IMG/VR virus record: IMGVR_UViG_3300032163_000003
Location: 32,001 to 96,000 of that record
DNA: 64,000 nt
DNA from: a virus
Direction: 5' to 3' (one strand)
Part shown: one piece after another, positions 1 to 40,035 of the stretch
How positions within the stretch are numbered: the first letter of the stretch is position 1
Layout of the letters: each line of letters begins with the position of its first letter
Translations under genes and position numbers: made by a program
The notes under the pieces: generated by a model
Seen by the model: the letters and a program-made list of their open reading frames with translations, nothing else
Database searches by the model: none
Told to the model about the DNA's origin: nothing

Positions 1-1199
1 GGAGACGGATTCTGGTACGCAGTAGGATCAACAGTACTGGTTGGTGTTCCTGGTGCTGTAACAATATCTTCGTCTGAAGGTATTCCTCTAGATGTTGAAG
101 TTACATTTGGTGCTCCTGGTTGGGGGCCATACATTTTTGGCGCTACAGTTCTTTCTCCCAACTGGTCTATATAGTCTCCAACTGATGGAACACTGGTAGA
201 GGTCCTCCGTCCCAACATAACAGAATGCAGCGGTTGGAACTCTAATCTGACATCAATCATGCTAGGTCTATTATTCCATGACATTTGGTTTTCGGGACCA
301 GGTTGTACTGTGATCCCTATGCATGATGCCATCTTCCACTTAAACAGTCCGGGACTCCAAATTTGATGAATATAAGGCCAACGATATAGATTATCTTGGT
401 CAGATAGTGGTGCTCCAAGCATTAAAAGTACAGTTAATGGTTCAATGATGTACTTATTGTAACATACATCACTAGCCTGATTTGGGTTATATAACCTTAC
501 CGGAATTGAGACCGGACCAGAGAATCCACTACCCATCCACACTTTAGGGAAATCAACTCTAGCACCAGTTAACATTTGACCTACTACACTTAACCCAGTA
601 CTGACCATGTTTCTTACACCTTGTTGTGTATTAGTTGGTAATTTATCTATTGCTTTTTCACCAAGACCTGCTATTCCTTTTATCAAATCGCCAATTTTTC
701 CGCTTGCCCATTCTCCTGCTCCTTTTCCCCTTTGTCCGGCAACCGCTCCCCCCAACTGTCCTGGGAGTTTTTGTGCTAAGCTTCCAAGACTAGTAGAACC
801 TGACATTTGGGCTAACTGTCCAAGTAGAGGTCCTCCAACTGATGTAATACTCTCTAAGAAACTAGCACCATAATCATTAGATAACTGAATGCCTGGAATA
901 GCTTCAGGAAGGAATGCAATAGGAATAGCATTAGAGTCTGTTTTTAACAAAATATCATAATCATTCATTAACATATCTTGAAATTCACCTAGTTTATCAT
1001 CAAAATGAAAAACATCTAAACCAGCAACAAATTGTCCTTGACCAGGTATAAGATACATAAGGGGAATGGATCCCTTTAAAACTTCATTAGAGAAATACAG
1101 TTCAACAGGAGGAAACCCAATTGGTAATCTAGTTGCTGTACTCTCTCCGGAAGATAGTGGATATCCCGGGGTTTTTGCTGCTTTAGCTGGATCTGCCAT
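1..1199 (-). CDS. Partial ORF running off the window edge; putative baseplate/tail-tube-junction structural protein
   Basis: Manual translation from ATG 1199 (SD AAGGAG): MADPAKAAKTPGYPLSSGE...GARVDFPKVWMGSGFSGPVSIPVRLYNP...RPSMIDVRLEFQPL. Absent from the ORF track because it is truncated. Function inferred from remembered resemblance and late-region position. Confidence 0.5.
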   Translation of the reverse strand, partial: MADPAKAAKTPGYPLSSGESTATRLPIGFPPVELYFSNEVLKGSIPLMYLIPGQGQFVAGLDVFHFDDKLGEFQDMLMNDYDILLKTDSNAIPIAFLPEAIPGIQLSNDYGASFLESITSVGGPLLGQLAQMSGSTSLGSLAQKLPGQLGGAVAGQRGKGAGEWASGKIGDLIKGIAGLGEKAIDKLPTNTQQGVRNMVSTGLSVVGQMLTGARVDFPKVWMGSGFSGPVSIPVRLYNPNQASDVCYNKYIIEPLTVLLMLGAPLSDQDNLYRWPYIHQIWSPGLFKWKMASCIGITVQPGPENQMSWNNRPSMIDVRLEFQPLHSVMLGRRTSTSVPSVGDYIDQLGERTVAPKMYGPQPGAPNVTSTSRGIPSDEDIVTAPGTPTSTVDPTAYQNPS

Positions 1200-1280
1200 T
1201 TATGTCTCCTTACTTAAAATTGCTCTAAAGTGAATTTTGTTTGTTTAAGCCTTAAAATCACTATGAATGGATTTGTGTTT

Positions 1281-1450
1281 GAACCCCAGTTCCGTGGACT
1301 TTGAAAATACACGATTGTGCGTGTATCCGGTTATGTGACCGGTCATGTGAAGGTACTAGTAGCACCGTTGTCCTGACAGTCTGACAAAACTGTCCTTTTG
1401 GTACGGTGGTGGTGTTTTTTACTTCGCCATCCCCGATCGTCCGATACCGA
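1281..1450. ncRNA. Candidate structured non-coding RNA
   Basis: GC-rich intergenic island with hairpins ATACACG/CGTGTAT, CCGGTT/GACCGG, and CACCGT/ACGGTG enclosing GACAGT/ACTGTC. Confidence 0.35.
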
Positions 1451-1472
1451 GATTTTTTACAAAAAAAATTTT

Positions 1473-1729
1473 TCAGTTTGAAACTGTTTCTTTTAACTTC
1501 GTTATTTCATCTCTAGCAGTAGATATCTCGTCATCCCAATGTCTCCGACAACTTTTTAAATCTGAATACTCATGCCCCCATTCTTTACCTTGTTTTACAA
1601 GTCTTGGACAATTCTTCTTTGCAATCTCACATTTCTTTATAAACCCTGTAAACGCTGAATCCGTTCTTTAGGGTCAGACTTGAAAAAGCCTTCTGTAAGT
1701 CCCTCTACTAGTCTATAAAATGAGAACAT
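1473..1729 (-). CDS. MFSFY-leader protein; 30-aa ORF extended to about 85 aa by a -1 frameshift at G GGT TTA
   Basis: ATG 1729 gives MFSFYRLVEGLTEGFFKSDPKERIQRLQGL* (stop 1639-1637); the -1 frame stays open to TGA at 1475-1473. Confidence 0.55.
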
Positions 1730-1732
1730 ATC

Positions 1733-2233
1733 TTATTCCTCTGTCTTAGCTGCTTTCTGGACCTTTTGTCTTTGTAATGCAAGGACTCTAATTGTTCTAA
1801 AAAAATTCTTCTTTGTTACTGGATCTTTAATTTCTGTTCCTGATTTTGCTAATCGTTTTATTGATGGACGTAAACTGGGATCTAGATAAAATTCGTCTAA
1901 TTGATCTGTTCTTTTTAATCCTTCTACTTTAGCTGCTTGCTGCGCAGCTGCTTTATTCTTTTGTGCTACCTCTCTAGAAGCTCTATATACTCCTGATAAA
2001 AAAGACGAAGCTCGTTTGCCACTAAGGGGGGTTGATCCTTTGAATACTTCTTTAACTCTCCCTGGATCTCGCATTCTAGCTCTAGCTTCCCATGACCTCT
2101 TTGTTTCTTTTTTGGCTTTTCTTAATGGAAAAAATACACTGGGTTTAAGTTTAGTCATTGTACTTATACCTTTTTCCCATTTGTATTCATTTAACTGATC
2201 TAACGTTTCTACTAGTCTATAGAATGAAAACAT
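1733..2233 (-). CDS. MFSFY-leader basic protein (putative internal head protein)
   Basis: N-terminus MFSFYRLVETLDQLNE, Lys/Arg-rich body. Confidence 0.65.
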   Translation of the reverse strand: MFSFYRLVETLDQLNEYKWEKGISTMTKLKPSVFFPLRKAKKETKRSWEARARMRDPGRVKEVFKGSTPLSGKRASSFLSGVYRASREVAQKNKAAAQQAAKVEGLKRTDQLDEFYLDPSLRPSIKRLAKSGTEIKDPVTKKNFFRTIRVLALQRQKVQKAAKTEE

Positions 2234-2235
2234 GA

Positions 2236-2451
2236 TTATGTCTCCTTACTTGATTTCATATGTGAATAATCTTTTAAGTATCTTGGATCTTTCCACATGC
2301 AAGTATCACAAACTATTATCTCACCAGAATTTGCATAGTTACCCCAGGGTTCACCAGTTGGCCCAACTGCATAAAATCCGGCCGTGGCTGTTTCGGTTCT
2401 AATTCCATCTATCATTTTTCCACATCGGTCGCACTTGACGGTTACTTTCAT
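2236..2451 (-). CDS. Small zinc-binding hypothetical protein
   Basis: CDRC...CDTC; tight gene packing. Confidence 0.6.
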   Translation of the reverse strand: MKVTVKCDRCGKMIDGIRTETATAGFYAVGPTGEPWGNYANSGEIIVCDTCMWKDPRYLKDYSHMKSSKET

Positions 2452-2693
2452 TAGAGTCTATTCCTTCTTCTATCATTACATATTATACCAGTTGAACTAA
2501 CATTAATATCTATATTAATAACTTTACCAAATAATCTTTCTAACCAGTCTAACTTTCCGTTTCCACCACATACATGACATAAATAGGGAATTTTTAATTC
2601 CCCGGTAAATTCGGTTCCTATCCCTTCACACTTTGGACATATGATGTCGGTCTTTTGGAGGTCTTCTTTTTGAACTCCAAGTTTACCGTTCAT
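2451..2693 (-). CDS. DnaJ-type zinc-finger family protein (CxxCxGxG...CxxCxGxGxxDW)
   Basis: CPKCEGIG...CHVCGGNGKLDWLERLFG. Confidence 0.7.
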   Translation of the reverse strand: MNGKLGVQKEDLQKTDIICPKCEGIGTEFTGELKIPYLCHVCGGNGKLDWLERLFGKVINIDINVSSTGIICNDRRRNRL

Positions 2694-2914
2694 TCTTCTA
2701 CTGGTCCTGCTAAATTCTTTTCTGCAGGTTCAGGTTCTGGCTCTTTAGTCTTTACTAGAGATAGTATTTTCTTCTTCCCTGGATTTTCTGGAGGATTGAT
2801 AGCTCCCGCTGCTGAAACTCCACTACTTGTTGGAAGTCCAGCAACTCCTGCGTCCCCTCCTGCGTCTTCATATAGTTTACCTAACGCTTCTACTAGTCTA
2901 TAAAATGAAAACAT
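2690..2914 (-). CDS. MFSFY-leader protein
   Basis: MFSFYRLVEALGKLYE. Confidence 0.65.
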   Translation of the reverse strand: MFSFYRLVEALGKLYEDAGGDAGVAGLPTSSGVSAAGAINPPENPGKKKILSLVKTKEPEPEPAEKNLAGPVEE

Positions 2915-2942
2915 ATCTTAATCTCCAATTGTTTTGTCTATG

Positions 2943-3335
2943 TTAAAATTTTAGAAGTGGGCCAGTCTTTATCTGTATGTCTGGTACTATGTTAACTAAA
3001 GTAGCAACTAAATATCTTGTGCTCTTGGTTCGTTCAGAGTTTTCCATCAGAATGGTACCTTCTAGTATTTTAAATTCGGATCCTTTGAAACTAAGAAGTC
3101 CCATGCTAAAACTTGTAACGTCATTTTTGTTTTCGTCTGTTAGCGTTACGACAAGATTTCCCTTTATGGGAATGTCAGTTTCATTCTGTATAGTTACTTT
3201 CCATTCTAATATACATCCGTCAGAACTACATGCAGCAGATAGTACTGCTGGAGTTATACTTACTTGACCATGTACTGCTGGAGCTATGAGTAATAGACTT
3301 AAGACTATTAACAATACTGCTAAGAATTTTTTCAT
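2943..3335 (-). CDS. Signal-peptide-bearing exported protein
   Basis: MKK, hydrophobic stretch, VHG cleavage-like site; SD AGGAG. Confidence 0.65.
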   Translation of the reverse strand: MKKFLAVLLIVLSLLLIAPAVHGQVSITPAVLSAACSSDGCILEWKVTIQNETDIPIKGNLVVTLTDENKNDVTSFSMGLLSFKGSEFKILEGTILMENSERTKSTRYLVATLVNIVPDIQIKTGPLLKF

Positions 3336-3346
3336 TTATATCTCCT

Positions 3347-3568
3347 CTATACTTCTGCTTCGTCTTTCTTCTCTACATAGCAAGGACAATTATGTTGCCT
3401 ATTTTTCTCGTTATTAAAATAGACACATCTACCAGCTTCTGAGACTCCTGCTTGTTTACACCCCGGAATACATAAGTTATCTTTCTTTTTCCATTTGGAA
3501 CAGACCTTACCATTTCCACAATAATCTTCTTGTTCTAATACTTCAAGTAATTTATAGAATGAAAACAT
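3347..3568 (-). CDS. MFSFY-leader Cys-rich protein
   Basis: MFSFYKLLEVLEQE followed by 7 Cys. Confidence 0.65.
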   Translation of the reverse strand: MFSFYKLLEVLEQEDYCGNGKVCSKWKKKDNLCIPGCKQAGVSEAGRCVYFNNEKNRQHNCPCYVEKKDEAEV

Positions 3569-3583
3569 GAGATTTAATCTCCT

Positions 3584-3782
3584 TTATTTATCACACTCTT
3601 TGCAATCTAACTCACTAGCGCCGATACCTGTAGTTCTGAATTCTTCTATGTGTCCACACTCAAGAGTTGTTTCTACTATGTGATATATTGTATGATGAAC
3701 TTCATTGCTTAGATAACCCGAACATCCCTGTGGGTCTGTCCATGTTCTATCTGTATGTTTATAAGATATAACTTTTCTAATC
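3584..3782 (-). CDS. Small hypothetical zinc-binding protein (probable start near MIRKV; start coordinate approximate)
   Basis: LECGH...CKEC; the longer ORF call overlaps the upstream gene. Confidence 0.45.
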
Positions 3783-3794
3783 ATTATTTTATTT

Positions 3795-4064
3795 CTATTC
3801 CTCTTCTGCTGGTTCCGCTTGCATTTTAAATCTTGACATTGCGGAAGATACTTTTTGTTTAGCATGTTGCGCTGCTTTGAAAGCGTTTACATATAATTGT
3901 TTATCTAGAGGAACTTTTGATTTCATATATGCTTTTCTACGTACTATCGCTGTTGCTATCTTATCTTTCCATGAAGAAAGAGATGGATTGTTTGAGCTTA
4001 AATTTCGATTCCATACCGCTTCTAGTAATTCTAGTTCTTCTATTAATTGGTAGAAACTAAACAT
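3795..4064 (-). CDS. MFSFY-leader protein
   Basis: MFSFYQLIEELELLE. Confidence 0.65.
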   Translation of the reverse strand: MFSFYQLIEELELLEAVWNRNLSSNNPSLSSWKDKIATAIVRRKAYMKSKVPLDKQLYVNAFKAAQHAKQKVSSAMSRFKMQAEPAEEE

Positions 4065-4357
4065 TACTTTCTATCTCCTTACATGCCCTACATTTAAGTC
4101 CTGGAATTACGCACCTTTTGAAAGTAATTCCTAAAATGAAGTCTAGTAAACAATATGTTATACCTAGATAGATTAGAATTTCCATTTTCTTAGATCTCCT
4201 ATGTGAACGTGAACCTACGGTGCTTGCGATCCTGCTTTAAAGATAATACACTTACCTACAATCTAGTCCACACCCACATGAACCAGCCCGAGTGAAAATC
4301 CTTAAAAGGATTTTCTTTATCCACACTTTTAGTTTAACAAAAAATACTTTCATATTT

Positions 4358-4918
4358 TTATTTCCGTATCTTTGAACCTTTATATTTTTCCGACGTTAAC
4401 TCTCTATATCTTTCTCTTAGTTCTAGAATTTTTTCCTCTGATGTGTCTACACAGTTCTGTCTGAGGAAAGCGCGTTCTTTACTAATTTTTGTATAACAAT
4501 TCTGAATTCGTTTTCTTAGAAGTCCTATTTGTACTTCTATTGCTTGCAACTTTAGTTTCTTTCTACATTCAAATCCTTCTACTCCTGTTTTAGAAAAACA
4601 TGTTTCTTTTTCTTTAGCTTCGAAATGAGCAGCTACCGCTCCTATAATAGCAGCAATTGTTATAATTCCTAACACTCCTAATGTACTTACTTTTTGTTTT
4701 TTCTTTCCTTCTAAAACATATGGAATAAAAGTTTCTTCAACTTCTTCGGGGTTTTCCGATTGTAGAATCATAGGTTCCTTATCTTTAGACTGTAGTATCG
4801 GTGCATTCGGAGCTATCTTAACTATTTTTGGATCTCTAACTTGTGGAGCTTCAGTTCTATCTAACTCAATAAGTTTTATAATTCTACTTATTCTCATTCT
4901 ACTGTCCTCCGACAACAC
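4358..4918 (-). CDS. Hypothetical virion-associated protein
   Basis: Acidic N-terminal part ending VLE, hydrophobic segment, Cys-spaced helical C-terminus resembling neighbours. Confidence 0.5.
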   Translation of the reverse strand: MLSEDSRMRISRIIKLIELDRTEAPQVRDPKIVKIAPNAPILQSKDKEPMILQSENPEEVEETFIPYVLEGKKKQKVSTLGVLGIITIAAIIGAVAAHFEAKEKETCFSKTGVEGFECRKKLKLQAIEVQIGLLRKRIQNCYTKISKERAFLRQNCVDTSEEKILELRERYRELTSEKYKGSKIRK

Positions 4919-5336
4919 TTACTTGTGACTTTTCTTTAACTTTTCTTGGGCTGCTCCACGGGGAAGTATTGATTATACCTTTTAGCTTATCTGACGCTAA
5001 AGTCTTTCCCGAGGAGTTTGGGGTTTTATCTCCCATATTGAATGAGTTTACGTTCTGAACTTCAGACACCTTCTTTTTCTTTGTTGCTTTATACGAATGC
5101 TGCATTATTGTAGCTTTTCGATTAAAACAATCGACCACGCATTTTTCCCACTCTTTTCTATCCAAGATACGAGAACACTCTGATTTACAAAACATCATCG
5201 CGTCACGTTCTTTCCCTTTTTTTATGAGATGACGTAATCCTAAAACACCAGCGATAGCTGCAATAGTTGGAGTAGCAAATAGTTCCTGCAGTTCTTGTTC
5301 TTCCAAATATTCTATTAATTGATAGAATGAAAACAT
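4899..5336 (-). CDS. MFSFY-leader protein (true start 5336)
   Basis: Internal MFSFYQLIEYLEEQELQE in ORF 4899..5453; the upstream extension overlaps the next gene. Confidence 0.65.
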   Translation of the reverse strand: MFSFYQLIEYLEEQELQELFATPTIAAIAGVLGLRHLIKKGKERDAMMFCKSECSRILDRKEWEKCVVDCFNRKATIMQHSYKATKKKKVSEVQNVNSFNMGDKTPNSSGKTLASDKLKGIINTSPWSSPRKVKEKSQVSVVGGQ

Positions 5337-5340
5337 GAAG

Positions 5341-5823
5341 TTATTCCTTATGTTGTTTCCAGGATTTAATTCCTGGTCCACCCAAGTTCTTAGTTGGTGC
5401 TCTGAATTTACCAGACCATTTATTCTTAATCCAATTATAACCTCTTGCTGCAATATTCGCGGCGTTTAACTTTTCATCCAACGACTGGAGATATTCGTCT
5501 AGTTGTGTAGTTTTTAGGAATTCTTGTTTATTTGTTTTTGAACTTTCTTCTACATTTTCTTCGTCTTTATCTTCTCTCTCGTAAGGCCTGAATGGATATC
5601 TTACCGCATTAACTGCGCCTTTTGCCACACCCTTAACTGCTCTGTATGCTCCGTATAATCCACCCGCTGCTAAGCCAGCAGTTCCTAAAGCACCAAGTCC
5701 TGCCACTTTTGCAGTTTTTTTAGCCGCGCTTTTTATTGCGGGAGCTGGTGGAACATATATTCCTTCCTCTTTCAGTAATAAGTCAAGGTCTCCTAAGAAC
5801 TGATAAAAGCTAAATCGTTTCAT
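5341..5823 (-). CDS. MFSFY-like leader protein
   Basis: MKRFSFYQFLGDLDLLLKEE; Gly/Ala-rich segment; internal FLKTTQLDEY motif. Confidence 0.6.
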   Translation of the reverse strand: MKRFSFYQFLGDLDLLLKEEGIYVPPAPAIKSAAKKTAKVAGLGALGTAGLAAGGLYGAYRAVKGVAKGAVNAVRYPFRPYEREDKDEENVEESSKTNKQEFLKTTQLDEYLQSLDEKLNAANIAARGYNWIKNKWSGKFRAPTKNLGGPGIKSWKQHKE

Positions 5824-6482
5824 ATATTTCCTCCTAGAATAACTTTTTGAATATCTCTTTTTACTTGATCTTTAGTTGGAAACTTATCGAACATTGTATA
5901 TCTTATAAATTTCCACCCATCTTCTTCAATTTCTTTTTGTCTTTTCTTGTGGTGTTCTTTGTGTTTCTCTGTATCAAAATGATACCAACCGTCAAATTCT
6001 ATAACTATTTTATGTTTAGACAAAGCGTTGTCAACTTCATAATCTTTATTTTCTAAAACTTTGTATGTATGTTCTGAAATTGGAAATAATTCTTTTACAA
6101 TTCCTCTAAGTTTAAGTTCTTGTTTTGATGGATTTTTGATTTGTTTTCTAGCTTTTCTAAGATTTTCTTTAACTTTCTCATTTCCTTTCATTTTTACTGA
6201 AACTTTTTCTGCTGCTCTTCTTCGCCCTTCATCATTCTCTTTAGTTCTACCGGTTATTTTTTCCGCTGCTCTTTCTCGAACCTTTTCAGTTTGAAAACTA
6301 AGAGCGTGAACTGCTCCTCCGTTTCTCATGTATTCTGCTTGTCTTTTAACGCTTTCATCATTCTCTTTTGTTTTTCCTCTTCTATTATGTCCAAGTATAA
6401 ATTTATTTCCTTCTTTAGTCACTTCTAATTCACATACTCCACAAGCACATAATTTCATTGATAATCTTCCTTCTTCATTCAT
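5820..6482 (-). CDS. Putative homing endonuclease, Vsr/DUF559-like nuclease with GRTKEN repeats
   Basis: C-terminal EVDNAL...IEFDGWYHF...GWKFIRY. Confidence 0.75.
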   Translation of the reverse strand: MNEEGRLSMKLCACGVCELEVTKEGNKFILGHNRRGKTKENDESVKRQAEYMRNGGAVHALSFQTEKVRERAAEKITGRTKENDEGRRRAAEKVSVKMKGNEKVKENLRKARKQIKNPSKQELKLRGIVKELFPISEHTYKVLENKDYEVDNALSKHKIVIEFDGWYHFDTEKHKEHHKKRQKEIEEDGWKFIRYTMFDKFPTKDQVKRDIQKVILGGNI

Positions 6483-6885
6483 AATTTGATTTAACCCTCC
6501 CAGTTCCTGAAACTGATTTAGACTGGTTCTCCCAGTTAGATCTGTTCATTCTAAATGTTTTAAAGTCACCAAACTTTTTATTTAACTTAACTATTTCTTT
6601 AGTCTTTCCTGAAAATCTTGGAGATTGTTCTTTACCTATTGTCGAAGGAAGTGGACGAATAGGACTTGCAGATTCACTTTCAACTGCGTCTCCAGTTTGT
6701 AATCTATTTGATCTTTCTGAATCAACATTTGACATAAACTTATTTAGTTTTAATTGCGCGCCAACTTTCTTCTTTCCGCTTAGATAGACCTCGTATTCAT
6801 CAAGTCTAGTAATTCTTAAGAACTGTTCCTTTGTCATATATAATTTGTTCCGTTTTGTGACAAGATCTGATTTAAATATTACCAC
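6475..6885 (-). CDS. Hypothetical basic protein with FLRITRLDEY motif
   Basis: Motif shared with two MFSFY-leader proteins. Confidence 0.5.
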   Translation of the reverse strand: MVIFKSDLVTKRNKLYMTKEQFLRITRLDEYEVYLSGKKKVGAQLKLNKFMSNVDSERSNRLQTGDAVESESASPIRPLPSTIGKEQSPRFSGKTKEIVKLNKKFGDFKTFRMNRSNWENQSKSVSGTGRVKSNYE

Positions 6886-9800
6886 TTAAAATTGCAGCGA
6901 TTTCAGGATCAAAAGATCCTTGTCCGCTTTGTCTTCCACCCCCACCGCCCTGTTGATTGCTTTGCATATTTGTGATTACGTTAGAGTTAGAAATTATCGC
7001 TGCGTTTACTCCTTTGAGACCTTTATCTATAGCTCCAACCATTGGGTTCATTGCTTTACTCATTCCATTGATTCCCATCATAGCATTTTCTACTTCTCCA
7101 TCAATCAAGTCTTTTCTTTTGTAAGGAACATTGAATTGTTTAGGATCTCCAACTTGTGGTTTCATTTGCAAATGCCATGGCTCATTTCCCATTGGCTGAT
7201 AAAATCCATACTTCTCCATCAGACCTTCTTTTTTCAAACCATAAGCATCTCCACTATTAATGTCTAACGCCAATCCTTTTCCGTGAGGAGATTTTCCTGG
7301 AGGAGCAGCGTATGGGTTAGTTTTGTACAACTCAGCTTGTTTTGCTGGAGACCTGTAGGCGGAGTTTAATTGAATCTCTTTTCCTGTTCCTTTCTTATAT
7401 TCTTCTGCCATCAAAGAGAAGTTTTTCCAAATTGGTTCTTGAACTCCACTTATATCAACATCAGGCATTTTCTTGATTCCAACTAAAGATCCAAGTCGTT
7501 CCCCAATCGTAGTAGCTCCAGAAACTATAGATTTTCCTATATCTGTTATTCCTACTTTTTCAGCTACTCTTTGAGCAAATCCAGTAGCTCCAGTTGCTGC
7601 TTGACCAATAGCCCCAGCGGCTTTTCCTAGTAAACTTTCTTTTTGATATTCTAGTTGGATTATTTTTCCTACGTCTGCGAAACCCTCTTTAATCGCTTCT
7701 CGAATAGTAATAGCTAAGTGAGATTCACTGCTTGCTGATTTACCAACACCATCCCCTACTTCTTTTATTTGACCATACTTTCTTGGTCCATATCCCGGAT
7801 CTCCAACTCCTCCCATTTGCATATATTTTTCATATTCCGCTTGCCCAGCACCAGGAGTAGTTTCTGGAGCTTTTTCCGGTCCACCTGTAACTTTCTCAAC
7901 AGCCCATCCAATCGCTTTTACAAGAGGATTCTTTTTAACTAAATCAACTATCCAATCTTTTGCTTTAACTGCTAAGTCCCACATAAAGTCAACTGGATAT
8001 AGAACCAAATCTTTTATCGCTATAGCCTTTTCTTTAACATAACCAACTACAGAATCTATAGATTTCGAAATTGTTTTACTAGCAGATTCAACTATATCAA
8101 AAACTAAGTCTCCGAGCCATCCAGGTCCTTTATATTTTCCTCCTGAAATCCACTCACCAAACATTCCAAATAATTCACCAACAAGAGTTTTTTCCCCTCG
8201 AAAAGCTTGTATCATTTCATAAACACCAAACGCAGCTGCTCCTACTGCAGCTCCCATTGGTAACATTCTTAATAAAGCACCACCCGCTTTACCCAGTCCT
8301 TTTAGCCCCAACCCACCAAGGGCTTTTAAGTATCTTAGAGGATTTAACTTTGTCATAAGACTCTTTACCCAACCACCGATTGCTCCAACAGTCATCAGCA
8401 AGTAGTCAGATATACTTTTAGTTCCTTTTTTAAGTATGTCTATAATTTTAGCTGTATCCTCTTTAATTGTTGCTACTATCTTTGAGGTAGGTTTTGCGAT
8501 ACCTATTATTTGTTTAGTTTGGTCTTTTGAAAGCTTTCCAAAATATCTTGAAATAAATCTAGCTGCTTTTCCTGATATTTCGGAAATAATTATCTTAGTT
8601 TCTAACTCCTTTTTTTCTCCTTCTTTGACTCCCATTCCAGCTTTTGCTGCTGCAAAAGGAATCTTGTAGTCTTTATAAGTCTTATCTTCTTTTACTTTAC
8701 CATGTTTTCCACCAAACAAAATTCTTTTTATGTTTTTTGGTCTTAAAGCTCCTAATCCTCCAACACCTCCAGCTTCCACTTCTCCAGCTCCAACCCCAGC
8801 GAAACCTAACATTGTTTCCCACGCTTTTTGAACTATGTCAGAAAAGAATCCACCACCCATTCCACCAACGGTAACTTTCTCTCTCTTCTTTTTAGCAGCT
8901 TTTTGACTAGGCGATTCCCAACCACCTTCTTCTGGAGCACCACCAAAACCAAGCATTCTTTTTATCTTATCAAACATTCCTTCTTCTTTTTTACCTGCCG
9001 GTTTCCACCAACGCTTGACTCCTCTAGCTCCAAGTCTTATTTTTTGAATTCCGGTTGCTTCCATCTTTTCTCTTGGTTCTCTAAATCGTTCCTGTTTTAT
9101 ATCAAGACCCATTCCAATAGCTTTTAGAGAAGAAAGTATGTGATCATATTTATGCATGAAGTCAGCATAAATCATTCCCAATGTAGTAGCAATATTTCCT
9201 AGAACGTTTGGACCTTTTGGAACTTTAGCTTTGTATTTGCTTTGAGTAGAGAATAACCACTTTAAAGGTTTAGCCATCCAATCGCTAATTTTTATAAATG
9301 TTTTGAACATAGGGATTTCTTTAAACATATCCCGTATCATGCCATATATTCCCCCCGGTTCTCCTTCCACATTCGGTTCAGAAATCGTTGTTAATTGTTC
9401 TCGAATTGCTCCTAACTCAGTCGTTACTGGTTTAATTGACCGTTTAAACATTAGGTTAAATTCTCTAAACAATTTTTGAGAAGGAACTACAACTTCTGCT
9501 GCATGCACTTGAGCTAGTCCTGTCTTTGCTACATATCCGCCTTTCTGTAGTTTTGGAATTCTTGTGTTTTCTCTAGCAGATTGACCAGCTCTAAACATTG
9601 ACTTAAACTTAGATCCAACCACACTAGCGGCGTCACTAAGTTTATTTTTAATTGCGTCACTAAATTTTCTGAAAACACCAGTTTCCATGAATTTAGCGGC
9701 GAAGTATCCAAATATAGGAGTAGCTCGACTCAGCGCCATTGCGACGGTATTTGGCGCGCTGATATTTAATTCTCTTTGTAAAATGTTTTTATAATTTTGG

Positions 9801-10132
9801 AGTGTTTCTTTTGTGATGGAAGATATCTTGACAACGCCTCTTCCCATTATGTCAAACACGTATCCAACTCTATTTAAGATACCAGAAACCGACTTTTCTA
9901 TTTCTCTAATTCCTTCAGTTCCAGCCATTCTTTCTACTTTAAGTCTTCTAGCTTTTTCTGTAATTCTTCTAATATCATTTCTAGCTCCGCCAAGTTCTTT
10001 TTGAAAGTCATCGTTATTTCTTTCTATAAAATTCGAAACAGCATTGATCCCTTTAGCTCGTTGGTTTCCTTCTGCCGTTGCTTCTCTTTCATTCTGACTC
10101 ATCATTCGTCTAATGTCTCGGTCATTAGCCAT
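6872..10132 (-). CDS. Tape-measure-like tail protein with C-terminal peptidase M15 (peptidoglycan hydrolase)
   Basis: 1086 aa helical and Gly/Ala-rich; PKLQKGGYV..VHAAEVVVP motif; M15 motifs SAYRS, SPHGKGLALD, EPWH. Confidence 0.75.
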   Translation of the reverse strand: MANDRDIRRMMSQNEREATAEGNQRAKGINAVSNFIERNNDDFQKELGGARNDIRRITEKARRLKVERMAGTEGIREIEKSVSGILNRVGYVFDIMGRGVVKISSITKETLQNYKNILQRELNISAPNTVAMALSRATPIFGYFAAKFMETGVFRKFSDAIKNKLSDAASVVGSKFKSMFRAGQSARENTRIPKLQKGGYVAKTGLAQVHAAEVVVPSQKLFREFNLMFKRSIKPVTTELGAIREQLTTISEPNVEGEPGGIYGMIRDMFKEIPMFKTFIKISDWMAKPLKWLFSTQSKYKAKVPKGPNVLGNIATTLGMIYADFMHKYDHILSSLKAIGMGLDIKQERFREPREKMEATGIQKIRLGARGVKRWWKPAGKKEEGMFDKIKRMLGFGGAPEEGGWESPSQKAAKKKREKVTVGGMGGGFFSDIVQKAWETMLGFAGVGAGEVEAGGVGGLGALRPKNIKRILFGGKHGKVKEDKTYKDYKIPFAAAKAGMGVKEGEKKELETKIIISEISGKAARFISRYFGKLSKDQTKQIIGIAKPTSKIVATIKEDTAKIIDILKKGTKSISDYLLMTVGAIGGWVKSLMTKLNPLRYLKALGGLGLKGLGKAGGALLRMLPMGAAVGAAAFGVYEMIQAFRGEKTLVGELFGMFGEWISGGKYKGPGWLGDLVFDIVESASKTISKSIDSVVGYVKEKAIAIKDLVLYPVDFMWDLAVKAKDWIVDLVKKNPLVKAIGWAVEKVTGGPEKAPETTPGAGQAEYEKYMQMGGVGDPGYGPRKYGQIKEVGDGVGKSASSESHLAITIREAIKEGFADVGKIIQLEYQKESLLGKAAGAIGQAATGATGFAQRVAEKVGITDIGKSIVSGATTIGERLGSLVGIKKMPDVDISGVQEPIWKNFSLMAEEYKKGTGKEIQLNSAYRSPAKQAELYKTNPYAAPPGKSPHGKGLALDINSGDAYGLKKEGLMEKYGFYQPMGNEPWHLQMKPQVGDPKQFNVPYKRKDLIDGEVENAMMGINGMSKAMNPMVGAIDKGLKGVNAAIISNSNVITNMQSNQQGGGGGRQSGQGSFDPEIAAILSGNI

Positions 10133-11915: not shown

Positions 11916-13646
11916 TTATCCTTTTTCTATTCCGATAAACTTTCCTAGTTCTTCCTCTTCCTCTTCGTCCTTTGGGAGCAGATCTATGGCTTTTCTAGAT
12001 TCGATCTTGTATCCAGGAGCTGCTCTGCTTAGTTGAGTTGTGCCATCATAGAAAGAAAGAGTATTTAAAAACCCTTGGTTTGCAGATATGTTATCTTTTA
12101 CGAACTGCATAATGTCTTCATTAGTTAGATTAGATCTTTGGTTGTCGTTCATTTTCATTACATCATTAAACATTGTGTCAGATAAGAACTTACTAGATTC
12201 TACCCCCATTGGTGGGTCATACTTGCGGACGTAAAATGCGCAAGCAGTTGCGAGAGACAAGTCATCTCTACAACCTACATCTCCTTCAACTTTTCCAGCT
12301 TTAGTAATTAATCCAATTAGTTCTAATGAAAGTCTTTTTGATTTAACTAATTCTGGGAATTCAGTAATATAGGAATATAACGAATCTATAATTAAAGGTC
12401 TAGTTTTAGAGTTATTCGATAGTCCGGCAACTACTTTATTATCACCTTTTTTCTCTTTGTACAGCATGTTTGATAAATCGGATCTATCAATCTCTTCACA
12501 TACTTGGTTTCCATATCCTCCAGTATTTTCAACAACTAGAAGACCAGGATATTTAGTACAAGCTAACCTAACTACTTTACTAAACTCGGTAACAGCAAGT
12601 TTTCCTTCGTACTCCCAAACTTGTTCTAAAGTTACATAGTCCCAAACTGTAATTGCAGAATTGTCTACGCCGTGTTCTGCAGCGGTATCCACTCCAATCA
12701 AATAGTATCTTCCCTTCTCGGGCTTCTTAAACATCCACGATTCCCCACCAAATATCCTTACAATTTCTATTGGTTCAGATTTATCTCTTTGTAACTTCTC
12801 GCAAGTAATTTCATCAAAGAACGATCCTTTTGTAGGTAAAAAGATTAAATCTAGTTCTTGCTTGATCGACCTTTGGTCATTTGCAAACATTTCACATTGT
12901 GTTTTATACCAAGTAGGATCTCCCGCAAGTTCTGGAATTTGTTTCCAGTGAATTTCCATATATTTAAAAATATCATCACCGCTCATTGATCGTTGATATC
13001 TTTTATAAAACCACGCACCTAAACCAGTAGTTTTATTAGGAGTTGATAATATTAAAGTTCCATATGGAACATTTGCTTCTCTTGCGTGCTTTTGATTAGT
13101 TGATAAAGCTGGAACCATTCCAACCCATGCATCTTCAATGTGTGGAATGAACGCTGCTTCGTCAATTACTAAGAATGTTATTGCTTTACCACGGAGAGTT
13201 CTTTCTGGGTGGTTTGGGTTTACTGGAGTAGCATAACATTTGCACCCGTTGTCAAGAATAAATTGTTGTTCTGTTCTTTTCTTGAACTTTGGAGACAACC
13301 AAATAGGAAGTTTATCTATCATTGACATTATCGCTCTAGCAAAGTCAGTAGCTTCTTTTCCATCTTTGGAGATAATTCCGATAACTGCGTTCTTAAAGAA
13401 ACAAACCAACCATCCAATATATGCTTGAACTACTGTAGAAATTCCAATTTGTCTAGATTTTAGAACTAACATGTTATGAATGGTGTGAATTAAGTTAATT
13501 AATTCAGCCTGTTTCTGATAAGGTTTTATCAGACGATCTCCCCCAACTAGTTCAAGTTTGATATACTTTCTGCAAAAATACTCGAATGAACTCTTACACT
13601 TAAAGTATTCTTGGAGCCTATACTGCCTTTCTTTTTCGTCAGTCAT
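11916..13646 (-). CDS. terL: Terminase large subunit (T4 gp17-like)
   Basis: Walker A LKSRQIGIST, Walker B LVIDEAAF, coupling motif STP, RNase H-like IGVDTA...DNSA...VVEN...DDL. Confidence 0.92.
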   Translation of the reverse strand: MTDEKERQYRLQEYFKCKSSFEYFCRKYIKLELVGGDRLIKPYQKQAELINLIHTIHNMLVLKSRQIGISTVVQAYIGWLVCFFKNAVIGIISKDGKEATDFARAIMSMIDKLPIWLSPKFKKRTEQQFILDNGCKCYATPVNPNHPERTLRGKAITFLVIDEAAFIPHIEDAWVGMVPALSTNQKHAREANVPYGTLILSTPNKTTGLGAWFYKRYQRSMSGDDIFKYMEIHWKQIPELAGDPTWYKTQCEMFANDQRSIKQELDLIFLPTKGSFFDEITCEKLQRDKSEPIEIVRIFGGESWMFKKPEKGRYYLIGVDTAAEHGVDNSAITVWDYVTLEQVWEYEGKLAVTEFSKVVRLACTKYPGLLVVENTGGYGNQVCEEIDRSDLSNMLYKEKKGDNKVVAGLSNNSKTRPLIIDSLYSYITEFPELVKSKRLSLELIGLITKAGKVEGDVGCRDDLSLATACAFYVRKYDPPMGVESSKFLSDTMFNDVMKMNDNQRSNLTNEDIMQFVKDNISANQGFLNTLSFYDGTTQLSRAAPGYKIESRKAIDLLPKDEEEEEELGKFIGIEKG

Positions 13647-14131: not shown

Positions 14132-15376
14132 CTAAATTGTATTATTGCTGCGGAATAAGTCTAGTTTGCAAGTTGGAAACCACTCTCCAGCTTTTGTAAA
14201 AATGATATCACTGTTTTTGAGAATATATTTTCCCGCTAGATTTGTATACTGAAGATTCTTCGTTAACAATTTTACTGGTTCACCTACATTTAGAAGATTT
14301 AAGATTTTCAAGTTCTTTTCTATCTCAACTGAAATAGTAGTTATGTTGGATAGGTATTTTGATAACCTTGAATTTATAAAAGTTTCATTCTCTTGATATC
14401 CAAGATGATCTGTGTAATACTTGGTTCGGTCTGTTATTGGATCAGTAGATACTTTATCATACTTATAAACTACTCCATAATCAGAAGTAACTTCATCTAG
14501 ATCTTTATTAATTATATTATATAATGCATCTTTTGGTTTAACTAAGTGCTTTGTTTGTTTTGCTAAAAAAGAAAACTTTGTATTTCCAGAGAAGTCACTT
14601 TTTATCGGGGCGTATGTGTAGAAATTTTTTCCTTCTTCACATCGTTTAAAAATTTCATCCATTTCCTCTTTTGTAATATCTAAAGGAACTTGAAAAATTC
14701 CAAAAGTCTGATCTTTGTTTATTTCTTTTGATAGATTGTGTACACGAAACTCATTACTTAAGTTACAGTGTACTTCTAACATTCCATCAAAAATTCCAAA
14801 TGTTTCATCTAAATACAGAATTGCTTTGTATAAAGTGGTTGGAGGAATAACTACTTGATCTATCGTTTCTGTATTTGCACCAGTATTTGTAAAATTCAAA
14901 GTAGCATCTGTTTTTCCAGTTAGTGCTTGAACTATATCTTTTACTGTTTGACCAATAAAAACATCGTTGACTAAAGTAGTAATGGTTTTGAATGGTTTTC
15001 TTGGAACAGTAATTATTCTAAACAGAGATCTATCTCTTTGAGAAGTAGCTGAAATTCGAACTTGTGGAGCAGCGGCATAACTGGTTTTAAGATACATCAA
15101 ATCTAAATCTATTCGTTCTAAAGTTGCTTTCTCGGTTCCTCTTCCTTCTAGTTTAATACTTAGTTTTAGAGGATCTTTTGAAAAAACATTTTCTTTGAGA
15201 ACTTGTTCTGGATCAATTAGAATATCTAAAGTGATTATCTGGTAAGGCGCAAATATTGAAGATGTAATTCTCACAGAAAGTAATTCTGGCGTATAATCAT
15301 AATCCTTGATGATTAATTGCAGATCGTACCCTCTAGCGAGTACGTAACTTCTTGGGTCTTTTACTTGATCAGCCAT
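14132..15376 (-). CDS. Putative baseplate hub/tail protein
   Basis: 414 aa beta-rich; C-terminal GEPVKL...LAGKYIL pattern recalls hub proteins; structural neighbourhood. Confidence 0.45.
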   Translation of the reverse strand: MADQVKDPRSYVLARGYDLQLIIKDYDYTPELLSVRITSSIFAPYQIITLDILIDPEQVLKENVFSKDPLKLSIKLEGRGTEKATLERIDLDLMYLKTSYAAAPQVRISATSQRDRSLFRIITVPRKPFKTITTLVNDVFIGQTVKDIVQALTGKTDATLNFTNTGANTETIDQVVIPPTTLYKAILYLDETFGIFDGMLEVHCNLSNEFRVHNLSKEINKDQTFGIFQVPLDITKEEMDEIFKRCEEGKNFYTYAPIKSDFSGNTKFSFLAKQTKHLVKPKDALYNIINKDLDEVTSDYGVVYKYDKVSTDPITDRTKYYTDHLGYQENETFINSRLSKYLSNITTISVEIEKNLKILNLLNVGEPVKLLTKNLQYTNLAGKYILKNSDIIFTKAGEWFPTCKLDLFRSNNTI

Positions 15377-20148: not shown

Positions 20149-20587
20149 TGCTAAATCCCTTTGATCCTCCCACTACGTTTTGGATCCAGTCGACATATCC
20201 ACGGCCTCTACACCTCACACATGTTCCAGATGTATGATTTCTTTTGTGAATTCGAAGAAACCAATATCTACTAGATTTTGGAGTCCAACCATTTCCGTTA
20301 CAAGTTTTACATATAATGTTACCTTGTTTTTTGATTCTTCTTTTGATTAAAAAATCTCTGAAATATGATTCTACGATTTCAAGAGTAATTTCACATATGA
20401 TTCCAAGTGAAATAATTAGTATTGTTTTGAATGGAATTGTAAGGGAAATAAACTTTCCATTCAAATCAAAATTAACACTCATACCAATTATCAAAGCGAC
20501 TAGTCCCCATCTTATAACTGCGGTGGTAATTCTTTCTCTTCTTGAAGGTATTCGGAAAGGTCTCATGTTGGCCCATTCAATTGGCAT
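20093..20587 (-). CDS. Membrane-anchored DnaJ-type zinc-finger family protein
   Basis: Two hydrophobic segments then CKTCNGNG...CVRCRGRGYVDW. Confidence 0.7.
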   Translation of the reverse strand: MPIEWANMRPFRIPSRRERITTAVIRWGLVALIIGMSVNFDLNGKFISLTIPFKTILIISLGIICEITLEIVESYFRDFLIKRRIKKQGNIICKTCNGNGWTPKSSRYWFLRIHKRNHTSGTCVRCRGRGYVDWIQNVVGGSKGFSNDNVESGPAMSGGSSSSV

Positions 20588-20617
20588 ATTTTTCTCCTAA
20601 TAAAAATTATTTATCTT

Positions 20618-20640
20618 TTCAATTAGAAATATATATATAG
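20618..20640 (-). promoter_or_regulatory. Candidate promoter TATATATAT-TTCTA-ATTGAA
   Basis: Matches the 13713 copy. Confidence 0.35.
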
Positions 20641-21330
20641 AATTTACAATCCATACCTTACGAACTTAAAATCTTCTTTTAAAATTTCTACCATCTGGTC
20701 ATAGTCGCCAAATTTATAGAAATCTTTTACAACTGGATCCTTGATTCCACCGTATGACAACATATAGTCTGCGTCAAGAACAGTTTCAATTACTTCGTCT
20801 TTTTTCATGACTACTTTGTTAATATTTTTTCCCTCTGCTTCAGCAGTACATTGAAGACAATCATACGCAATTGTTTGCCACGTTGCTTGTGCTGCTCTTT
20901 GAAATTCTTTTATTTGTTTTGGTGTAAGATTAAACCTTTTTCTTTCTTTCATTTTTCTCCTTTATACTTTTTAAGTCTTTAAGAGTTTCTTCAACAACAG
21001 TAATAATTTTACTTGGTCTAGTTTTTATAACTCTTCCTTTGACTTTACATTCTTTGACTTGATCCCAAAGGTGACTTCCAATAATACCAAGATCTTTCGC
21101 AGTTCCTTTTGCAACTTCTTTATACTTTCCTTTTTTAATCCGTAAACTTACAGTCCATACGTTTTCAGCGTTAATATTCCAGTCACCTTTTTCCAAAAAC
21201 GCGCAGTATCCATTTCTCATTTTTCGTTTACCTTTTCGAATGGACCAGTATGGACAATTACCTTTGTCACTATAACAATAGGATCCGCGGGGTATCAGTC
21301 TCTTATCTTTTTTCATTTTTTGATTTCCTT

Positions 21331-21966
21331 TTATAAATACCTGTAGCGGTATTTTCTCATAAATTTTCTGCCGTTTCCAGAGTTTTTAAACCTATAGTTT
21401 TTTGTTAGTGAGTGACAGTTTGGACAAACTAGTTCTAAATTTTCAGGACGATTGTGTTTCCAGATTCCATCTTTGTGATGTAACTCAATAGGAATTGTTT
21501 TATAATATGGATTTTCTTTATTCCATCCACATTTCATACATTTGTTTCCATAAGTTTCAATAAAGTATCGTTTTATATGACTAGACGCTCCACCCTTCTT
21601 AGTTCCAGTTATCTTACCTTCAAACCACTGTTTAATAAAAACTTTGTATTTATAATCGTTAAAACAGTGAAGATTACAAAATTTCTTTTTACATGAGAGT
21701 TGTTTTCCACAAGATAAACAGTTTAAGAACTTTCTTTTTATTACGCCAGAACCGCCCAACGATTTACTTATTTTTACTCTAGTTTCTCTTTTATGTTTTC
21801 TTCCTGGTGTATTGAATTTTGCAGCGCAAATTCTACTGCAGAACTTTGGATTTTTTGTTTCTTTTTTGCATAACAAACATTTTCTGGTAGAGGTGCTTGG
21901 GCTCGAACCAAGAACCTGTTTCTTATAAGGAAACTGCTCTACCACCGTTGAGCTACACCTCCTCAT
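21331..21966 (-). CDS. HNH homing endonuclease; reading frame runs through tRNA-Ile(TAT)
   Basis: KFCSRIC zinc motifs; CMKCG...IELHHKDG...NLELVCPNCH. Confidence 0.8.
   Translation of the reverse strand: MRRCSSTVVEQFPYKKQVLGSSPSTSTRKCLLCKKETKNPKFCSRICAAKFNTPGRKHKRETRVKISKSLGGSGVIKRKFLNCLSCGKQLSCKKKFCNLHCFNDYKYKVFIKQWFEGKITGTKKGGASSHIKRYFIETYGNKCMKCGWNKENPYYKTIPIELHHKDGIWKHNRPENLELVCPNCHSLTKNYRFKNSGNGRKFMRKYRYRYL
21885..21962 (-). tRNA. tRNA-Ile(TAT)
   Basis: Cloverleaf; anticodon arm GTTTC-CTTATAA-GAAAC; TTCGA T-loop; CCA. Confidence 0.9.
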
Positions 21967-24027: not shown

Positions 24028-24390
24028 TTATTTCCTCTTCGCTAATTTTTTCTGACACACTTTACAATTGTCTGGACTATTGTCATTACCCTCTTCTAAA
24101 TCTGGATTTCCAATAATCATCCACTTTTCACAGAGAGATATTTTCTTAACAAAGTAATGCCACTTTCTCGTATTAACTAACCAAGTCCATCCTTCTCTTA
24201 CATTATTAGGCATGGGATATAAACAACCTCCTGCTGCGGTTTTTCTATGTTTAAATCTAGTTAGTATTTTGATATGCTTTGCTAGAAGTTTCAAATGATT
24301 GTTAAAGAAGGGACAGTTCATTCGTTTATTACAAATCATACCAACAATACAAGTCTTACATGGTTTAGTTGGATATTTTGAAGTTTTCAT
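24028..24390 (-). CDS. CxxC(I/L)(I/V)xxxC family protein
   Basis: PCKTCIVGMICNKRMNC. Confidence 0.6.
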   Translation of the reverse strand: MKTSKYPTKPCKTCIVGMICNKRMNCPFFNNHLKLLAKHIKILTRFKHRKTAAGGCLYPMPNNVREGWTWLVNTRKWHYFVKKISLCEKWMIIGNPDLEEGNDNSPDNCKVCQKKLAKRK

Positions 24391-25082
24391 TTTTTCTTCT
24401 TTTTTGACTTAAGTATCTTCATCTCGTTATAGTTTTTTTCGTCTCTGATTTTTCTTTCTTCATGCATCTTATCGATTTCTTTTTGATGTTGTCTTTCTTT
24501 GAAGATTTTGTTATCTAACATTTTATCTCGCTCGTCTTCTGTAAAGTCATCAGAAAGAAACAATTGTACAAAATAAGAAAGTTCTTTTGAATCTTGCGGT
24601 AACTCTGGAAATATGTTCGCGCCACATTTTTTACATTTATATTTTATGTTTAGAACTGCGTATGAACTACAGGCACAATCGCCCTCCAACTCGGCGTCGA
24701 TGTTAACTTCTATATCTCCATCGCATTCAACCATGTCTGGTTCTGGAGTAAACCTACCTAGTGATATATAGTACCTCGGATAAATCTTTACTGCTTTTTG
24801 ATAGGGCGCTCCAGATCCTTTTTTTCTGGCGGGAATAAATTTTACAAATGATTTACATTTCATATTACTTCCTCTTTTTCTTCTTGTCTTCTATAATTCC
24901 CCCATCTTTGATTTTTACGACTCTATCTTCCTTTAAAACTAAATGATCTTTTTTAACTTTGACACTATTAATAAAACAAGCTTCATCCCAACCTGAAGAT
25001 AGATCTGTTCCTCTATAACGATCTTCGGATGTTTTTCCGCAAGCTAAACATACCCAGATAGTTTTCATAAAACTTTCTCCTT

Positions 25083-39801: not shown

Positions 39802-40035
39802 TCTTTCTTTTCCTTTTATCTTTTAATAGACACCAGTTTGGTATTCCTTCTCCTTCCCGAGAATCAAGAACTTTATTTTCCCAACTATCTACTCTTTTTT
39901 CTTCATCTAGTTCTTCTACTCTAGAACAAAAAGAATGAAATTCAGTCTCAAATTTACTATGACATTCCCAACAATTTGATATTAGAAGTAGTTTTATTCT
40001 TCCAGTTCTTATTCCCATTGATTCTCCTTTTTGTT

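Follow-up and report, generated by a model that had tools for sequence, protein, structure and literature searches.

FSFYxLxE, a portable N-terminal leader on unrelated genes of an uncultured giant phage, is a candidate head-targeting propeptide

In bacteriophage T4, the first 10 residues of the internal protein IPIII suffice for incorporation into the head, with residues 4 and 7 of this capsid-targeting sequence (CTS) involved in targeting and residues 8 and 10 in processing, and the gp21 prohead protease cuts after L/I-x-E (PMC9026906). The internal proteins of the T-even phages form a diverse, basic set that has the conserved CTS alone in common (PMC3012670), and it has been proposed that the CTS may be a general route by which T4-like phages load varied proteins (PMC9026906). 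In the T4 genome (NC_000866), IPII and IPIII share the leader MKTYQEFIAE over 30 identical nucleotides, that of IPI starts with MKTFKEF, and the internal-protein genes lie away from the head genes. Here we analyze a leader of this general kind in a 64,000-nucleotide stretch (the window) of the virus record IMGVR_UViG_3300032163_000003, where the motif FSFYxL(V/I/L)E heads a series of otherwise unrelated genes (g1 to g7, with an eighth, g8, elsewhere in the contig) and is, by analogy with the T4 CTS, most likely a portable N-terminal address tag of ~9-19 residues.

The window corresponds to bases 32001-96000 of a linear IMG/VR contig of 110,069 bp (G+C 34.6%), which according to CheckV represents ~35% of the genome, implying a genome of roughly 300 kb. 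Seven leader genes lie between window positions 1637 and 5823, all on the minus strand and with the coordinates given by the original prediction. These are g1 (1637-1729; 30 aa, MFSFYRLVEGL); g2 (1733-2233; 166 aa, pI 10.4), with MFSFYRLVETL ahead of a basic body; g3 (2690-2914; 74 aa), with MFSFYRLVEAL ahead of an acidic, Pro/Gly/Ala-rich body; g4 (3347-3568; 73 aa), with MFSFYKLLEVL and a Cys-rich body (7 Cys); g5 (3795-4064; 89 aa), with MFSFYQLIEEL (Ser codon AGT) and a basic body; g6 (4899-5336; 145 aa), with MFSFYQLIEYL and a basic body containing a hydrophobic Gly/Ala segment and 4 Cys; and g7 (5341-5823; 160 aa), with the variant leader MKRFSFYQFLGDL (Ser codon AGC) and a basic body containing a Gly/Ala-rich hydrophobic segment. 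The ATG of g6 at 5336 is 4 nt past the g7 stop. A six-frame scan of the whole contig revealed an eighth member outside the window, g8 (MKAFSFYQLLEKL, 90 aa; contig 20313-20585, i.e. L001:8313-8585, plus strand), located in a baseplate module after a gp6-like baseplate wedge gene. In all eight genes, the leader occupies the extreme N-terminus behind the gene's own Shine-Dalgarno site, the only element that these genes have in common upstream of the ATG. A degenerate DNA pattern for FSFYxLx(E/G) matched the window 8 times, compared to 0.02 expected from shuffles; seven matches are the leaders and the remaining one, at 39808 on the plus strand, lies in a non-coding frame.

To establish the level at which the leader is conserved, we compared the codons of 12 leaders, the eight of the contig and four of relatives (see below). 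No variation occurs at S3, F4 and Y5, and almost none at F2, L7, E9 and L11. Ser3 is encoded by TCA in nine leaders, AGT in two and AGC in one, and synonymous variation is found at F4 (TTT/TTC), Y5, L7, E9 and L11, with leucine appearing as CTA, TTA, CTG, CTT or TTG and glutamate as GAA or GAG. Because the codon class of Ser3 and the synonymous codons vary, the leader is conserved as a protein sequence and, as judged from these codons, selection on it acts at the protein level; conservation of the DNA alone, the outcome that the original prediction had set against itself, is thus not what is observed. The g2 orthologues (P0002-P0006) all retain MFSF(Y/F)RL(V/I)E, position 10 alone being free. 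The near-identical leader DNA noticed earlier was also recovered, with 77-94% identity among g1, g2 and g3 over 35 nt and 84% between g2 and g3 over 51 nt.

The first 20 residues of the eight proteins contain 15 L-x-E sites, compared to 4.7 in shuffles. In six tags out of eight, L-[VIL]-E occupies residues 7-9, and in g8, where it is offset by two, residues 9-11; in g7, a glycine replaces E9, so that the first L-x-E is LKE19. Residues 10-20 contain a second L-x-E in g1, g2, g3, g5, g6 and g7 (6/8; not in g4 and g8), and the sites of g6 end at residues 9, 13 and 18. The tag itself is acidic and amphipathic, with no hydrophobic core. The bodies, described initially as often basic, are indeed so in g1, g2, g5, g6 and g7 (body pI 9.6-10.7), that of g3 being acidic, that of g4 Cys-rich and that of g8 near neutral. 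They show no similarity to each other or to Pfam, PHROG or GenBank-phage proteins, which leaves the anti-defence role once suggested for them unsupported; an ESM Atlas search with g7 was uninformative.

The nature of one tagged protein could be recognized in a relative, the metagenome contig L122, where the leader heads a 112-aa protein whose body is an encapsulated ferritin (EncFtn). This body scored 30.1 bits against PF22277 (cut-off 27) and 36.2 bits, above cut-off, against PF02915, and its closest solved structures are the P. furiosus EncFtn 5n5e (E=1.8e-18) and the encapsulin-fused form 2e0z. ELDAxNLYEQ and EEKTHxGEF, which contain the E..Y and ExxH metal-site motifs, are invariant in the EncFtn alignment. 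Among the nearly 2,000 EncFtn homologues, the cellular ones (e.g. those of Methanosarcinales) have 94 aa and start with MLSKIPIDL; three tagged forms (P0014-P0016) have 15-18 extra residues, namely MFSFYKLLE, a short variable spacer and (V/I)LNE, and then proceed with LLSKIPIDL. Since the cellular homologues start exactly after the tag, the tag is an add-on to a ready-made EncFtn domain, and the second L-x-E (LNE) falls exactly at the domain boundary. AlphaFold2 modeled the tagged protein as a low-confidence tag helix (residues 4-16), a linker and a two-helix EncFtn hairpin with a pLDDT above 90. The EncFtn cassette is found in contigs of the relatives and is absent from the window contig. EncFtn is otherwise known as a cargo of HK97-fold encapsulin shells (PMC5012862), and the literature searched contained no paper joining EncFtn with phage capsid targeting. 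Note that four other EncFtn homologues of 104-114 aa (P0017, P0019, P0032 and P0057) have different N-terminal extensions before (L/V/M)(L/M/I)S.(I/V)PIDL, two of which end in x-x-E (QNE, LSE) at the domain boundary; from their sequences, these extensions may be tags of other phages.

We carried out the proposed search with a leader hidden Markov model (HMM) built on the first 30 residues, screening 1.84 billion representative proteins. It gave 8 matches with E <= 1e-3, all from families of the window locus, and on this basis the tag is limited to a rare lineage. Exact and degenerate leader DNA patterns found only chance, non-coding matches in IMG/VR, a search for related loci based on the large terminase (TerL) returned one 9-kb relative, without a leader locus, and the 724-aa protein encoded next to the locus and the alignment of the g2 family, used as queries, retrieved nothing from viral or metagenome contigs. 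The true relatives came from a DNA-pattern scan of metagenome contigs; they are short and, among the matches listed, comprise L055, L109 and L122. Most of the other listed matches stem from an unrelated gut gene that contains MFSFYALMEGLG internally, and were rejected. Among the sequencing runs, the stretch occurs in the probable source DNA run only, and no RNA run containing it is listed; contigs of the source run contained no cassette variants and only endonuclease paralogues.

The idea that the DNA repeat aids cassette shuffling received support from three sides. Firstly, L109 aligns to window positions 4227-4075 and then jumps to 3584-3349: the ~490 nt that it lacks are exactly one leader-to-leader unit (g5 and a small Cys/His open reading frame (ORF)), so that the g4 orthologue occupies the place of g5. 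Secondly, L122 has the EncFtn cassette upstream of its g4 orthologue, at the place of the unit missing from L109. Thirdly, a homing-endonuclease-like gene with a DUF559/Vsr-like C-terminal domain (5820..6482, minus strand) lies directly upstream of g7, and a paralogue with 43% identity to it (L001:7583-8326, plus strand) directly upstream of g8. The DNA homology between the two covers the 3' half of the nuclease gene, crosses the junction, includes ~13 leader codons and then ends, and both of these leaders belong to the MKxFSFYQ subtype, a pattern of sequence identity that suggests either joint movement of endonuclease and leader or a role of the leader DNA as a homing target. How cargo sets turn over is suggested by the indel bounded by leaders and by the junctions between endonuclease and leader. 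Orthologues of g4 were found in P0007, in L055 and L122 (leader variant MISFY) and in L109, where the protein has an extended C-terminus and 122 aa, and orthologues of g3 in L055, L122 and P0013. In P0006, the g2 N-domain is fused to a different C-terminal module; a resemblance of this C-terminal half to g6 or to the 186-aa ORF of the locus was rejected, as BLASTP does not bear it out.

On balance, we incline to regard the leader as a T4-CTS-like head-targeting propeptide that is removed after L-x-E. The amphipathic tag helix would bind the prohead scaffolding core or the inner shell, and the attached protein would thereby become enclosed. A Glu-specific prohead protease of the gp21 type would then remove the tag after the L-x-E at residue 9, with a back-up site 4-10 residues further on, and the freed, mostly small and basic bodies would remain in the head with the DNA, probably to be delivered to the next host. 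At the DNA level, the repeated leader would act as a recombination joint for the gain, loss and movement of cassettes, which are accompanied in two cases by a homing-endonuclease gene. The originally proposed T4-type loading and cleavage is favored by the logic of a tag with L-x-E sites, by the graft onto EncFtn, by the helix model and by a T4-type terminase, whose closest cultured relative has gp20, gp21-type protease and gp23 genes as well as a shared leader of its own (see below); no protease, capsid or scaffold gene was found in the contig. TerL (window 11916-13646, minus strand) is a member of the T4 superfamily: its top matches, at 28-30% identity, are those of Flavobacterium phage immuto, Microcystis phage Mel-JY01 and a 595-kb uncultured phage. 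T-even phages and cyanomyophages come next, by the hundreds.

The g2 and g7 proteins may be cut by the same protease a second time, at their internal x-L-D-E-(Y/F) module junctions. A second motif, K(E/Q)xFL(R/K)xT(R/Q)LDE(Y/F), occurs three times, at the N-terminus of a basic 120-aa protein (6475..6837, minus strand; probable start M17 of the listed ORF), at residues 99-111 of g7 and at residues 108-115 of g2. The N-terminus of the 120-aa protein, MTKEQFLRITRLDEY, matches the internal g7 motif, KQEFLKTTQLDEY, the shared KxxFLxxTxLDEY giving a pairwise E=6e-4. The g7 and g2 copies sit at apparent module junctions: the g2 orthologues end near residue 109, just ahead of the internal TDQLDEF, and the g2 protein of the window extends beyond them from TDQLDEF onwards. 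In the AlphaFold2 model of g2, the internal LDE114 lies in a low-confidence, non-helical stretch. From these sequences, the L-D-E sites of g2 and g7 are possible cut sites at module junctions, and the N-terminus of the 120-aa protein may be either a tag of another type, with L-D-E at its end, or a cut site.

Several observations weigh against a cleaved head-targeting propeptide. L-x-E is not significantly depleted in the bodies (3 observed versus 4.5 expected, P=0.31), L11 is conserved past the proposed first cut, the P1' residue is not conserved, and g7 has no E9. FSFYxLxE has no significant similarity to the T4 CTS MKTYQEFIAE, only a loose aromatic-Q-hydrophobic-x-E likeness in another register; to speak of a different targeting code, as had been done, is for the same reason fair. 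In addition, as the leader HMM finds this lineage alone, no characterized phage has an FSFYxLxE tag; the phage is uncultured and its tagged proteins are known here from the DNA only. The hydrophobic segments in g6 and g7 could indicate membrane proteins. The 110-kb contig, i.e. ~35% of the genome, contains no capsid, portal, scaffold, sheath or prohead-protease gene and no match to PF03420, PF07068, PF07230 or PF04586; the head module must thus sit in the missing part of the genome, and the protease and its specificity are an assumption for this phage. Finally, the locus is flanked by a tape-measure-like gene on one side and tail/virion genes on the other, with g8 in a baseplate module, which would suit a role in the tail equally well.

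The propeptide and the recombination joint can be combined into a more far-reaching proposal, which we consider possible but somewhat doubtful: in this lineage of large T4-related phages, the head would be partly encapsulin-like, a cleavable, lineage-specific label would load it with changeable cargo, including EncFtn, and the leader would double as a mobile joint of which the endonucleases carry a copy.

The best surviving alternative, although an unlikely one, is that the leader is an uncleaved docking helix. Its common partner could be a tape-measure/tail-lumen complex, a chaperone of baseplate or tail assembly or a target in the host, the proteins being tail-associated or cytoplasmic accessory factors. 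The gene for the 1086-aa tape-measure-like protein is directly upstream of the locus, virion and tail-spike genes are downstream, and g8 follows a gp6-like gene; this is, however, weak evidence, since the internal-protein genes of T4 are also away from its head genes. The conservation of L11, and often L14, past the proposed cut would fit a longer amphipathic helix, and the Gly/Ala-rich hydrophobic segments of g6 and g7 resemble those of tape-measure or ejection proteins. By contrast, a docking helix would give no role to the doubled L-x-E sites or to the L-x-E at the EncFtn boundary, and the EncFtn fusion itself indicates a shell interior. To our knowledge, the loading of varied proteins into a tail by means of an N-terminal tag is without precedent.

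It is less probable still that the leader genes are paralogous duplicates in which the leader has no address function and was kept alike by gene conversion, recombination or the demands of good translation initiation while the bodies diverged. The leader DNA identity among g1, g2 and g3, the assembly break at the g1 leader repeat (see below) and the visible duplication of the endonuclease-linked leader are what such a history would produce. It does not account for the switch of the Ser codon from TCA to AGY, for the synonymous changes at every conserved residue or for a tag grafted onto a foreign, well-defined EncFtn domain, the cellular homologues of which begin precisely where the tag ends. 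Among the bodies, length, charge and composition vary, and no similarity is left. As for a leader serving export, membrane insertion or peptide maturation, e.g. of the bacteriocin or RiPP (ribosomally synthesized and post-translationally modified peptide) type, the small, Cys-rich g4, the Gly-Gly at residues 19-20 of g3, the signal-peptide protein and small membrane peptides of the locus and radical-SAM-like genes elsewhere in the contig (judged from N-terminal sequence only) might suggest it, but an acidic, amphipathic tag devoid of a hydrophobic core, bodies that reach 160 aa and, like the folded EncFtn, are not RiPP cores, a double glycine confined to g3 and no adjacent maturation, transporter, C39 peptidase or modification gene make it very improbable.

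As originally noted, the leader genes are interleaved with leaderless ones, all on the minus strand. Two of these encode zinc-finger proteins, namely a zinc-ribbon-like protein of 71 aa (2236..2451) and a DnaJ-type CxxCxGxG protein of 80 aa (2451..2693), the latter also present beside g3 in L055. A 130-aa protein (2943..3335) has a Sec-type signal peptide, read by eye; it is untagged and, to judge by its sequence, probably exported, and is kept between g4 and g3 in all of the relatives (L055:271-678; L109:718-1089). A small, zinc-binding Cys/His protein (3584..3784; listed ORF to 3865) has its probable start, M28, at 3784, 10 nt past the g5 stop, and is missing from L109 along with g5. A hydrophobic 42-aa membrane peptide (4057..4185) is directly upstream of the g4 orthologue in L109, and a 186-aa protein (4358..4918) has one strongly hydrophobic, transmembrane-like segment.

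The shortest leader gene, g1, terminates with a TAA directly after the heptamer G_GGT_TTA, a perfect X_XXY_YYZ sequence, and the -1 frame continues (1479..1640, minus strand) for 54 open codons encoding a Cys/His-containing body; at this A+T content, we estimate that an open -1 frame of this length has a probability of ~0.02 by chance. On these features, the continuation could be either a frameshifted remainder, due to a one-base loss in the T-run at 1640-1643, or the result of a programmed -1 frameshift giving products of 30 aa and ~84 aa. No homologue of the continuation was found. Logan contigs assembled independently from the source run end exactly at the g1 leader (window 1710-1739), where they overlap by 30 nt; the leader repeat splits the assembly graph, and hence the adjacency of g2 to g1 depends on how the original assembler resolved the repeat.

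Around the locus, the 1086-aa protein lies upstream (6872..10132, minus strand; tape-measure-like or ejection-like) and carries a VanY/M15 D-Ala-D-Ala carboxypeptidase domain at residues ~899-964. This domain points to a peptidoglycan-bearing bacterial host, though the best cellular matches of the relatives' EncFtn are archaeal. Downstream lies the N-terminal part of the gene for a 724-aa 'virion structural protein' (PHROG 20401; 3..1199, minus strand). Other genes nearby encode a tail-spike-like protein and, on the opposite strand, baseplate hub and wedge proteins of the gp25 and gp6 types. The gene that follows g8 in the baseplate module (L001:8507-9376, contig 20507-21376, plus strand) encodes an M14/AstE-AspA-like zinc carboxypeptidase (PF24827, 27.3 bits; PF00246, 23 bits). 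The T4 late-promoter motif TATAAATA was not enriched (12 found versus 21-29 expected) and does not occur upstream of the leader genes, a sigma-70 scan gave matches at chance level only, and an Rfam scan of window positions 1-7000 found nothing.

Phage immuto (L130, MW353177.1), the closest cultured relative by TerL, has its genes in the order TerL, gp20 portal, gp21-like protease and gp23. In the 41 kb read of its genome, four proteins with unrelated bodies, immuto136C_175, 176, 190 and 198, begin with MKKS(Q/E)(L/I)..(I/L/V)(I/V).(K/E)E, their genes being located at 3278-3853, 3864-4343, 14172-14930 and 24339-24560, one of them between portal and prohead protease. From these sequences, lineage-specific leaders seem to be common in this wider clade. 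As immuto can be cultured and apparently has a sister leader system, it seems to offer an experimental route to head loading.

If the FSFYxLxE tag does load the head, it marks the proteins that an uncultured giant phage delivers to its host with the DNA, a first-minute arsenal that is otherwise invisible in the sequence. The principle of the T4 CTS would then extend far beyond the T-even phages, with lineage-specific codes, and the EncFtn fusion of the relatives would link phage heads functionally to encapsulins. Should the leader also be a mobile joint, any gene downstream of it could become head cargo. For the packaging of foreign proteins in phage capsids, to which the T4 CTS has already been put, a loading tag this short and portable would be of practical use.

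Compared with the T4 CTS (IPI, IPII, IPIII and Alt), the system of the window phage is similar in that an N-terminal tag of ~10-19 aa heads unrelated, small and mostly basic proteins, ends in L/I-x-E, is encoded by near-identical DNA in some of the genes and occurs in a phage with a terminase of the T4 superfamily. As with the T-even internal proteins, the cargo genes differ among related phages and the leader is conserved. It differs by its FSFYxLxE motif, by a second L-x-E in most tags, by homing endonucleases next to two clients and by having at least 8 clients in one genome fragment, mostly in a single array interleaved with untagged genes; moreover, packaging and cleavage have been described for T4, whereas the window phage is known here from its genes.

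More distant likenesses are found elsewhere. The giant phages phiKZ, 201phi2-1 and SPN3US have processed inner-body or ejection proteins and a protease (gp175/gp245) with the motif S/A/G-x-E (PMC9026906, PMC5694885, PMC7411985), and redundant propeptide sites have been described for phiKZ (PMC9026906). Phages of this type share with our proposal a large genome, many head-internal proteins, cleavage after Glu at a short motif and redundant sites, but their propeptides are long rather than a shared short tag, the P3 residue is small instead of Leu/Ile, and the terminase here is of the T4 type. In Family 1 encapsulins (PMC5012862), a short peptide sends cargo into an HK97-fold shell, and EncFtn is a cargo there and a tagged protein in the relatives of the window phage; encapsulin tags are, however, usually C-terminal and are not removed, whereas the tag described here is N-terminal with protease-type sites. 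The Dar anti-restriction proteins of phage P1 are packaged in the head, and capsid targeting has been mentioned for them (PMC9024508). The likeness to the proposed system lies in accessory proteins that enter the head and are delivered along with the DNA, the phage lineage being unrelated. We know of no common short cleavable tag on the Dar proteins. All in all, the principle is known from the T-even phages (PMC3012670, PMC9026906), and what is new here is the FSFYxLxE motif, the doubling of the L-x-E sites, EncFtn as a client and the linkage to endonucleases.

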